The notes: a model not told the origin generated them from the letters alone. A DNA stretch of 54,596 nucleotides from Nitrospirae bacterium MYbin3 (GCA_002753335.1 PEAD01000021.1:1-54596); one strand, 5' to 3'. Numbered from the stretch's first letter, positions 41,757 to 44,300 are shown. Numbers and translations are program-made.

Positions 41757-44300
41757 ATGGAACAAGATTTGCACAGACAGACAGACAGACAGACAGACAG
41801 ACAGACAGACAGACAGACAGACAGACAGACAGACAGACAGACAGACAGACAGACAGACAGAAATGCTTATATGATCGAGAACAAACTCTACAAAACACGC
41901 AAATTCGTAAACCAGTGGCTGATTCTTGGAATAGTGCTGCTCGCACTGGGCGGGAGCATGTGCTATTCCCTTTACAGACAACACAGCCATATCGAAGCAG
42001 ACAGCCGAGAGCAGCTGGCCACCCAAGCGAGGGTCATCGATGAAAACATAAGACACCAAATAACTGAGGCCAATCTTATACTTGAAGGCATTCGTGATGA
42101 TCTACCGTTTTGGAAAAAAAATAAAAGTGATAAAGCACGGATAAACTGGCGTCTACGGGCCTTGAGCGATGCCATGCAGGGCGTGCGAACCATAAATATC
42201 CTTAATGCATCTGGGATTACGGTCGCCTCAAACCGGGACGAACTGATAGGCCGCAATTTTTCTGAGAGGGAATATTTCAAGGTTCCTAGCCAAAATCCTG
42301 ATATATCCATGCTTTATATCTCTTCGCCATTTAAAACCATTTTCGGTGTTTGGGGCATTAACTTGTCCCGGGTGATACTTGGCACTAAAGGCGAGTTTGC
42401 AGGGATTATCACCGCCACCCTCGATCCCGAATATTTCAGTGTTATTCTTAAATCTGTTAACTATGCGCCCGACATGAGGAGTTATTTGGTCCATAGCGAC
42501 GGCAAGGTTTTTGTTACAGCACCGGTTTTCAAAGATATTGAAGGCATGGATCTTGCCAAGCCCGGCAGCTTCTTTACACGGCATATTGAAAGCAAGCAGA
42601 CTTCTAATCTGTTCAAGGGGCTTTCTTATTCCACCGGTGAAAAACGTTTGGCAGCCTTGCGCACCATAAAAAGTGATAAATTAATTCTGGACAAGCCTTT
42701 GGTGGTCGCTGTTTCGCGCAATCTGTCTTCCGTATCGGCCACATGGCGGCAAGAGGCGTTAGTGCAGGGAGGGGGCTGCGTAGCGCTGGCTTTCGTATCA
42801 GTTTTCGGTTTGCATCTTTACCAGCGCAGAGAGCAGAAGTTCAGACTTATCGAAACCGGTTATGTGGCTAAACTGCAGGAGAGCGAAGCGCGGTTGGTTC
42901 TGGCATTGAGAGCAGCAGAGCAGGGGATTTATGATCTGGATTTAAGAACAGGTGAAGCTGTAGTAACCCCCGAATATGCGCTTATGCTTGGGTATGATCC
43001 TGCTGAATTTCATGAGACCAATGCAAAATGGATAGAGAGGCTGCACCCTGATGACAGGGAACAAGTAGCTGCTGTTTATGCAGCTTATGTTAAAGGTGAA
43101 GTAGATGAGTACAAAGTTGAGTTCAGGCAGAAGACAAAGGCCGGGGACTGGAAATGGATACTTTCTATAGGCAAGATCATGGAGCGCGATGAGAATGGCA
43201 ATCCGCTCCGCATGGTCGGCACACATACCGACATCACCGAGCGCAAGCGTGCAGAGGAGTCGTTGATTAAGAACGAAGAAAAGTACCGGGTATTGATAGA
43301 AAACCATCCTTCAGGGCTTGTGGTTCACGGCGCTGACTCTTCTATACAGTTCTGTAATTCAATCTCGGCAGACCTTCTGGGCTTGACTAAAGATCAGATG
43401 ATCGGAAAAACAGCGATGGATCCATACTGGTGTTTTTTTAATGAAGAAGGCAATCCACTTTCTCTTGATGAATACCCGGTCAATCGATTAATACGTTCAG
43501 GCGAAAGAATAAAGAACCAGATCTTAGGAGTCCGTTGCCAAGAGAAAGAGAAAATCCGGTGGATGATTTGTAATGGCTATCCGTTGTTTGATGAGAACGG
43601 TCAGCTGATGCAGGCTATTATCACATTCAGCGATATAACTGACCGCAAGCTGATGGAAGAACAGATTGCGCGTTCTCTGAAAGAAAAAGAGGTGCTTATC
43701 AAAGAAATCCACCACAGGGTAAAGAACAATATGTCGGTCGTGTCCAGTCTTCTTTCTTTGCAGGCAAGAAACATAACGGATGATAGTGTCAGGCATTTTT
43801 TTGAGGAGAGCCAGCAAAGGATTAAATCAATAGCGCTTGTACATGAAAAGCTCTATCAGACAAAAGATTTGTCGGCCATTAGTTTTAAAGACTACATCAA
43901 GTCAATCATTTCGGAGATAATCAGCCTGTACCGGATAAATACCGGTTTAATAACTATAGAAATGGACATTGAGGATATTGAGCTTGATCTCGAGTCAGCA
44001 GTGCCGTGCGCATTGATAATCAACGAACTTTTGACGAATGCCTTTAAATATGCCTTCCCTGACAATAGAAGAGGGGTATTGAGCGTCAGTTTTAAAGAGA
44101 CTGAAGACAACAGATTTATTTTGACAATCATAGACGATGGAATCGGACTGCCTGAGGGATTTGATTATAAGCAGGCAACCAGCCTCGGTCTTCAGCTTGT
44201 AGCCGGCTTGGCAAAACAACTTGGGGGAACTTTTCAGCTTAAGTCTGATAACGGAACAGAAGCGGTGGTTGTTTTTGCTAAAAAAGAACAGGGCAACTAA
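41757..44300 (+). CDS. Cache-PAS-PAS sensor histidine kinase, HisKA_2 type (alternative start ATG 41871)
   Basis: TM, dCache-like domain (FSEREYF), TM, PAS_3 (LHPDD), PAS, EIHHRVKNN, ELLTNAFKYAF, DDGIG, SLGL. The ORF from 41757 includes the RQTD repeat encoded by the microsatellite. Confidence 0.92.
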   Translation: MEQDLHRQTDRQTDRQTDRQTDRQTDRQTDRQTDRNAYMIENKLYKTRKFVNQWLILGIVLLALGGSMCYSLYRQHSHIEADSREQLATQARVIDENIRHQITEANLILEGIRDDLPFWKKNKSDKARINWRLRALSDAMQGVRTINILNASGITVASNRDELIGRNFSEREYFKVPSQNPDISMLYISSPFKTIFGVWGINLSRVILGTKGEFAGIITATLDPEYFSVILKSVNYAPDMRSYLVHSDGKVFVTAPVFKDIEGMDLAKPGSFFTRHIESKQTSNLFKGLSYSTGEKRLAALRTIKSDKLILDKPLVVAVSRNLSSVSATWRQEALVQGGGCVALAFVSVFGLHLYQRREQKFRLIETGYVAKLQESEARLVLALRAAEQGIYDLDLRTGEAVVTPEYALMLGYDPAEFHETNAKWIERLHPDDREQVAAVYAAYVKGEVDEYKVEFRQKTKAGDWKWILSIGKIMERDENGNPLRMVGTHTDITERKRAEESLIKNEEKYRVLIENHPSGLVVHGADSSIQFCNSISADLLGLTKDQMIGKTAMDPYWCFFNEEGNPLSLDEYPVNRLIRSGERIKNQILGVRCQEKEKIRWMICNGYPLFDENGQLMQAIITFSDITDRKLMEEQIARSLKEKEVLIKEIHHRVKNNMSVVSSLLSLQARNITDDSVRHFFEESQQRIKSIALVHEKLYQTKDLSAISFKDYIKSIISEIISLYRINTGLITIEMDIEDIELDLESAVPCALIINELLTNAFKYAFPDNRRGVLSVSFKETEDNRFILTIIDDGIGLPEGFDYKQATSLGLQLVAGLAKQLGGTFQLKSDNGTEAVVVFAKKEQGN
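41773..41860. repeat. Perfect tetranucleotide microsatellite (ACAG)22
   Basis: 88 bp of uninterrupted ACAG, counted directly. Confidence 0.99.

Follow-up and report, generated by a model that had tools for sequence, protein, structure and literature searches.

An (ACAG)22 tract before a sensor kinase gene of Nitrospirae bacterium MYbin3 as a probable truncated member of a phase-switch cassette family

The perfect tetranucleotide repeat that precedes a membrane sensor kinase gene in Nitrospirae bacterium MYbin3 is probably the core of a slippage-driven phase-switch cassette, of which the copy in the window would switch the kinase by reading frame alone (rough probability, 0.55). The window is the whole stretch of DNA that was analysed, 54,596 nucleotides of PEAD01000021.1. 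If this reading is correct, the known pil1-type mechanism extends to a cassette that occurs across phyla of uncultured bacteria from groundwater and sediment, and it would there guard chemotaxis-like methylation proteins, sensor kinases and surface proteins. The window copy would also show how an attenuator cassette can be converted to switching by translation.

The tract, its reading frames and the kinase

The locus carries the following features:

40119..41741, plus strand: MCP chemoreceptor (HAMP and MCPsignal domains), 540 aa
41757..41759, plus strand: start codon of the leader; the homologous starts in the cassette family have an SD, this copy has none
41758..41772, plus strand: sigma54-type -24/-12 box TGGAAC-N5-TTGC over the start codon (GG at 41759-60, GC at 41771-72)
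41773..41860, plus strand: perfect (ACAG)22 tract, reading (RQTD)n in all three frames
41861..41874, plus strand: remnant 3' spacer, in which a CTTAT like that of the family (41866-70) precedes the early stop TGA (41872-74) over ATG 41871
41871..44300, plus strand: membrane sensor kinase from its probable native start, 809 aa, or 847 aa as a fusion from 41757
42041..42043, plus strand: out-of-frame leader stop for n mod 3 = 2, from computed frames
44301..44335, plus strand: hairpin terminator with A- and T-runs, common to the kinase and fba

An earlier note on this DNA had described 22 perfect ACAG units that begin 16 nt after ATG 41757, which itself lies 15 nt behind the MCP stop, and this description was confirmed in the assembled sequence. 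The tract is the sole tetranucleotide tract with at least four units across the 2.93 Mb of the host genome and stands far above background; the search for further ACAG tracts in that genome, which the note had proposed, returned none. Computed frames reproduced the three outcomes that had been worked out by hand. With 22 units (n mod 3 = 1), translation from ATG 41757 yields the 847-aa fusion. When n mod 3 = 0, it ends at TGA 41872-74, which overlaps the kinase ATG 41871, and when n mod 3 = 2, it continues to TGA 42041-43 and gives a product of 96 aa.

The kinase possesses, in order, a TM segment, dCache_1, a second TM segment, PAS_3, PAS, HisKA_2 and HATPase_c, and its frame is unbroken over 809 codons with the His box present. 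The starts of two out of ten homologues align exactly with ATG 41871, and those of the rest fall within a few to about ten residues of it. On this evidence, ATG 41871 is probably the native kinase start, and the RQTD stretch is probably an addition. Neither ATG 41757 nor ATG 41871 is preceded by an SD (duplex energies of +0.8 and +0.2 kcal/mol, respectively), which bears out another remark in the note. The ATGA coupling suggested there is plausible, given that the same overlap is found in 181 of 3092 long ORFs of the host genome, 44 of them with a weak or no SD. The closest family homologue of the kinase (L479:1340-1500) has no clear start codon and is preceded by an AT dinucleotide run.

The window copy retains the box, the tract, the family-like CTTAT and the early stop. 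The SD is absent, and the terminator finder detected no terminator within 130 nt after the tract. Lacking both elements, this copy cannot attenuate and, joined as it is to the native start of the kinase, would switch by translation only. In the absence of an SD, translation of its leader would rest on re-initiation after the MCP gene, which is the likely source of both its transcript and its ribosomes. Having terminated on the MCP gene, these ribosomes would start again at ATG 41757. With 22 units they would produce a kinase with a 38-aa cytoplasmic extension before TM1, whereas 21 units would give the native kinase by ATGA coupling, so that the OFF frame of the family would be turned ON. With 23 units the kinase start would be bypassed, and little or no kinase would be made. 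The switching between fusion, re-initiated and off states that had been proposed is upheld in part. The SD-bearing start, the non-random frames and the length variation of the family described below argue for it, but this copy has no SD. Also against it, no other member of the family has a convincing fusion or ATGA layout, and only scattered, chance-like cases were found.

In a congener (G001), the orthologous MCP runs 108 aa further, into a CZB domain, and is then followed by the same hairpin as that at 44301..44335. Based on this layout, the box, the tract and the kinase occupy the place of the MCP 3' end. The cassette is absent from the congener, and the kinase was not found there with the query used. 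The sensor region of the kinase was found in one of the four relatives searched, G001 being among the three without it. A window-specific metagenome scan returned no contigs with the 5' flank of the tract. In addition, a minus-strand tRNA-like sequence was seen by eye upstream of the MCP, at window positions 39900-39975.

The cassette family and its leader

The note had likened the tract to Haemophilus contingency loci. It is not an isolated locus of that type but a truncated member of a leader-peptide/terminator cassette. Of the 68 family genomes, eight contain (ACAG)6. Eleven tracts were found in relatives, nine directly after the motif GG-N10-GC and the other two off by one box position. 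The pattern GG-N10-GC-(ACAG)4 matched at least 118 loci in GTDB (about 140 estimated), and the carriers among the matches listed are mostly Nitrospirota, Desulfobacterota-type deltaproteobacteria and Nitrospinota. A control scan with the reversed tract gave 16 scattered matches, and viral contigs gave one match. As judged from the GTDB loci, the cassette appears to begin with a sigma70-like promoter. Next come an SD and a start codon on which a sigma54 -24/-12 box is superimposed, then (ACAG)n, stops at staggered positions, a terminator and lastly a co-oriented signalling or surface gene.

A terminator lies within 130 nt of the tract in 72 of 100 loci, compared with 14 of 107 and 5 of 60 in controls. 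By crude ORF calls, the next gene is co-oriented in 47 of 51 loci; the previous gene has the same orientation in 34, the opposite orientation in 21 and is missing in 3. Tracts range from 4 to 22 units at these loci, which places the window copy among the longest, and tract length does not correlate with spacer length. Pairing between the 5' and 3' flanks across the tract was considered and rejected, as cognate flanks paired no better than non-cognate ones (58 of 105, p = 0.26). Flank pairing did beat shuffled partners, a result that composition can explain.

Of 76 downstream ORFs called, 63 were scanned for domains, and 13 near-duplicates or doubtful calls were left out. Signalling proteins account for 23 of the 63 (including eight CheB/CheR fusions), surface or secreted domains for 20 and other functions for 5, while 15 have no Pfam match. 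The note had regarded a tract before a sensor kinase as unusual in an apparently environmental lineage. By this tally, signalling targets in such lineages are the rule for this element. Cassettes also precede bAvd-like, Lcl_C and FGE-sulfatase genes (L130, L226, L230, L232, L133, L242 and L123), although among the four bAvd-like ORFs that of L130 alone was domain-scanned. Genes of these kinds are typical parts of diversity-generating retroelements. Many further ACAG microsatellites (L253, L254, L260, L268, L289, L291, L312 and others) come from one genome labelled Dehalococcoidia, whose repeat-rich DNA looks like eukaryotic contamination.

Sequence statistics suggest that the family leader is translated. 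At 80 of 108 loci the first three letters of the box are ATG, GTG or TTG, and the remaining 28 have no start codon at the leader position. An SD precedes the leader start in 51 of 79 family loci, a set from which four hsdS loci and weak boxes were taken out. For comparison, in the host genome an SD was scored at none of the 25 strict sigma54-like boxes, at 11 of the 115 loose ones and at 482 of 1164 long-ORF starts. An SD was also scored in 9 of 20 family loci without a start codon. In L053, L054, L055, L166 and similar loci, the box begins with CTG or CGG, and an SD-backed start-Gly-stop mini-frame lies just upstream. With scoring weights approximated from recall, an upstream sigma70-like site exceeds shuffles in 94 of 109 loci, mostly 30-110 nt upstream, and 51 of these sites reach at least 8 bits.

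The arrangement of stop codons is also non-random. In 61 of 73 terminator loci, a stop within 18 nt of the tract occurs in one frame and in no other, compared with 38.6 +/- 4.3 after shuffling (0 of 500 shuffles). A switchable layout, in which a far-stop and a near-stop frame are both present, occurs in 68 of the 73, compared with 55.1 (1 of 500). Leaders at present use the far-stop, or early-stop, frame in 35 of 62 loci versus 22.3 expected (p = 0.0006), and the p-values of all these frame statistics overstate the case because the loci are related to each other. When one locus was taken per cluster (32 clusters), the trend persisted: the one-early-stop layout amounted to 24.5 versus 16.7 +/- 2.9 and the far-stop frame in use to 14.0 versus 9.6. 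The far stop is separated from the terminator stem, which follows it, by 23-45 nt (median 32), and the second stop by a median of 10 nt. A cruder count of the frames that reach the hairpin was close to shuffles. The number of repeats is different in 20 of the 26 pairs of copies whose 5' flanks are at least 90% identical; three of the pairs are hsdS, and pairs overlap. Four paralogues within one genome possess 20, 16, 16 and 2 units.

The closest known system is the leader-peptide attenuator pil1/pil3 of Streptococcus gallolyticus (Danne et al. 2014, PMC3894217), a phase-variation system which, like the cassette, places a non-triplet repeat inside an RBS-bearing leader ORF. According to the relevant passages of that paper, pil1 of S. 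gallolyticus is expressed at a low level if the leader ends at least 28 nt before the terminator and at a high level if it ends next to or in it. By analogy, the sigma70 transcript of a full cassette would carry SD-ATG-(ACAG)n. One repeat class would stop the ribosome about 32 nt before the intrinsic terminator, leaving the gene OFF, and the other two classes would bring it up to or into the hairpin, turning the gene ON. As far as those passages describe pil1, the two systems are thus alike in that the low-state stop is far from the terminator and the high-state stops are next to or in the hairpin. They also share a purine-rich, CAGA-containing unit and have surface genes among their targets. 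In contrast, the cassette unit is ACAG rather than GCAGA, its hosts are Gram-negative environmental lineages, many of its targets are signalling genes (23 of 63), and it has a sigma54-type box over the start codon, a feature in which pil1 is set apart here by its published description only. The layout of a pil1-type attenuator therefore appears to be present in the cassette family but not in the window copy, which has neither RBS nor terminator. In the literature searched, the pil1-type mechanism was shown only in one streptococcus.

Haemophilus lic1A, lgtC and mod are translational tetranucleotide contingency loci. As in these genes, and in a repeat-bearing hsdS as far as the relevant passages of PMC7383803 describe it, a frameshifting tract near the start would set the product in the window copy. 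The window copy differs from the Haemophilus loci in that the tract precedes the native start, with fusion, coupled and off states as the predicted result, and in its likely derivation from an attenuator cassette. A promoter goes unmentioned in the passages of PMC7383803 that concern the repeat-bearing hsdS.

The sigma54-type box and other promoter-like sites at tracts

The note had proposed an extended -10 at 41750-58, but a consensus scan gave no promoter there. The site is instead a sigma54-type -24/-12 box, whose predicted +1 falls near 41784, inside the tract. Across 108 non-redundant family loci, the unforced positions of the box read TGGCA-N6-TTGC (T 89, C 87, A 95, T 75, T 100), in agreement with the sigma54 consensus TGGCAC-N5-7-TTGCT presented in the relevant part of PMC12316311. 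Similarity to the promoters described there includes the TGGCA and TTGC elements, the GG-N10-GC spacing and the presence of rpoN and activators in the host, although, unlike usual sigma54 promoters, the box overlaps a putatively translated start codon and adjoins a microsatellite. When tracts were chosen by their 3' flank alone, the strict box adjoined 40 of the 57 that have a terminator and 7 of the 52 that lack one. It was found on none of 734 ordinary SD-bearing gene starts of the host genome although 188 of these begin with ATGG, and the last letter of codon 5 is G in 37 of 38 unbiased loci. On these two counts, the idea that the box merely results from 'ATG GCA' was rejected. The host genome encodes rpoN and about 21 activator-type genes. 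However, co-occurrence with rpoN says little, since rpoN is already present in 66 of the 68 family genomes; one genome (G047) has a 3-unit copy and no rpoN match. IHF-like sites upstream are not enriched in the family (9 of 112 versus 11.0). Overall, the sigma54-type box seems to be a conserved part of the cassette and a predicted promoter.

GCAGA tracts were scanned as a control, with 120 of about 550 listed, many from Bacillota. Among those listed, none of 105 GCAGA tracts adjoins a sigma54 box. A sigma70-type site of at least 8 bits, with its -10 ending 0-10 nt before the tract, is present at 43 of 101 GCAGA tracts listed, compared with 1-7 at shifted positions, and in 33 of these 43 the stretch from the -35 box to the tract includes an SD-backed start codon. 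Controls for the abutting site gave 1 of 95 on the opposite strand and 1 of 733 and 0 of 16 at ordinary gene starts. ACAG tracts without a sigma54 box have such a site in 9 of 64 cases, compared with 0-3. In eight of eight hsdS hinge tracts (ACAG or GCAGA; L106, L134, L157, L165, L248, L367, L372 and L426), which were picked after inspection and are mutually related, Leu-Thr is encoded by TTG ACA, and a -10-like hexamer lies just before the tract, so that the codons there spell a sigma70-like -35/-10 pair. These data suggest that sites resembling promoters, in two sigma types, are repeatedly placed so as to target the first units of a tract. Among loci L359-L478, many GCAGA tracts of Bacillota have an SD and start inside an abutting sigma70-like promoter, and 18 of 83 have a terminator within 130 nt. 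On inspection, pil1-like leaders appear to be widespread among Bacillota GCAGA tracts. In a Succinivibrionaceae DNA methylase gene that has an ACAG tract (L116:1501-1540), a sigma54-type box covers the region of the start.

The recurrence of promoter-like sites with two sigma types, together with precedents in hmw1A and yeast, led us to propose a mutator role for them. In H. influenzae, deletion of the hmw1A promoter strongly impaired repeat-number change, a result to which the authors add a caveat about selection in the passages concerned (PMC12721329), and transcription predicts repeat mutability in yeast, according to the relevant part of PMC5814968. The heptamer in the hmw1A 5'-UTR is thus, within those passages, a precedent for repeat-number change that needs transcription through the repeat; the promoter there is that of the gene itself, and a long RNA hairpin takes part together with RNase III (PMC12721329). 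In contrast, the tract here is unstructured, pairing of its flanks is unsupported, and its candidate promoter would give a transcript without leader expression. It is possible, as a tentative proposal, that slippage switches carry a dedicated mutator promoter over the start codon or, in hsdS, over mid-gene codons. The open complex and +1 would fall on the first repeat units, and an untranslatable purine-rich transcript or bubble would destabilise the tract. Bacillota would use a sigma70/sigmaA site for this purpose, and Nitrospirota and Desulfobacterota a sigma54 site. Transcription from the cassette's box would begin inside the tract and so leave out the start codon, and in full cassettes it would run no further than the terminator; the box would then serve to destabilise the tract and not to express a protein. 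If the proposal is true, an enhancer-binding activator would set the switching rate at sigma54 sites, resulting in signal-regulated phase variation of signalling and surface genes. The apparent convergence on a promoter at the tract start, of sigma54 or sigma70 type, on one strand only and even inside coding sequence, makes a question of long standing testable, namely whether cells set the slippage rate in cis and by signals.

Other roles for an embedded promoter can be envisaged. A sigma-dependent pause couples ribosome and polymerase, and the site might help in this way, but such a pause needs no -35 box and does not fit sigma54. Alternatively, the site might relieve polarity on downstream genes, bound holoenzyme might repress the upstream promoter, or tracts might merely arise where promoters melt DNA. 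No account of a cassette with ACAG and sigma54 elements, or of promoters that adjoin phase-variable tracts, was found in the literature searched, mostly without subscription papers.

Alternative explanations for the window copy

The sigma54 promoter could itself be the working part, driving a kinase mRNA that starts near 41784 and has the tract in its 5' UTR. The native ATG 41871 would then be used without an SD, and repeat number would only tune expression. The box fits both the consensus of PMC12316311 and the host genome's own sigma54-like sites, rpoN and activators are encoded, the predicted leader RNA is almost unstructured (-2.3 kcal/mol), and the box is intact while the SD and the upstream sigma70 context have been lost. 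This explanation is nevertheless unlikely. The box is situated at the end of the MCP coding sequence, the C-G after TGGCA is poorly kept, and the IHF-like sites are not enriched. Moreover, in terminator-bearing members such a transcript would end before the gene, and the frame bias of the family requires translation from the ATG. A relic is quite unlikely as well. In that case, the cassette and kinase recently landed in the MCP 3' end, the rearranged copy lost both its SD and its terminator, and expression of the kinase is minimal at any number of repeats. Evidence for such an event comes from the congener, whose MCP keeps the CZB domain and the same terminator where the cassette and kinase replace exactly that stretch, and from the missing SDs and the failure to find the kinase in three of four relatives searched. 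However, the kinase still has an unbroken frame of 809 codons that includes the His box, the tract is free of imperfect units and ranks with the longest, and the junction at present gives both an exact ATGA overlap and an in-frame fusion.

Some small RNAs, such as CrcZ and CsrB, are protein sponges, and the cassette might encode a sigma54-driven small repeat RNA of this kind or a binding platform for an antiterminator protein. While the box, tract and terminator do form a self-contained unit, this is highly improbable. A sponge needs no SD, start codon or frame-dependent stop layout, copies with only 2-3 units exist, no match reached the Rfam gathering score in eight loci, and the window copy has no terminator. 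The downstream genes are co-oriented in 47 of 51 loci, and a stand-alone small RNA was rejected on these grounds. There is similarly very little likelihood that an assembly error produced the tract length and, with it, the apparent in-frame state. Several relatives show contig breaks or N gaps at the tract, but the flanks form a conserved, non-random cassette across phyla and in megabase contigs, and an error could alter the repeat number, not the element.

The host genome contains other repeats. Eight copies of TAAAAAG lie directly before an SD and start codon (G000:C4:2346-2401), nine copies of an in-frame 9-mer lie inside a very long ORF (G000:C37:129460-129540), and a 13-bp unit is repeated five times at G000:C1:172113.
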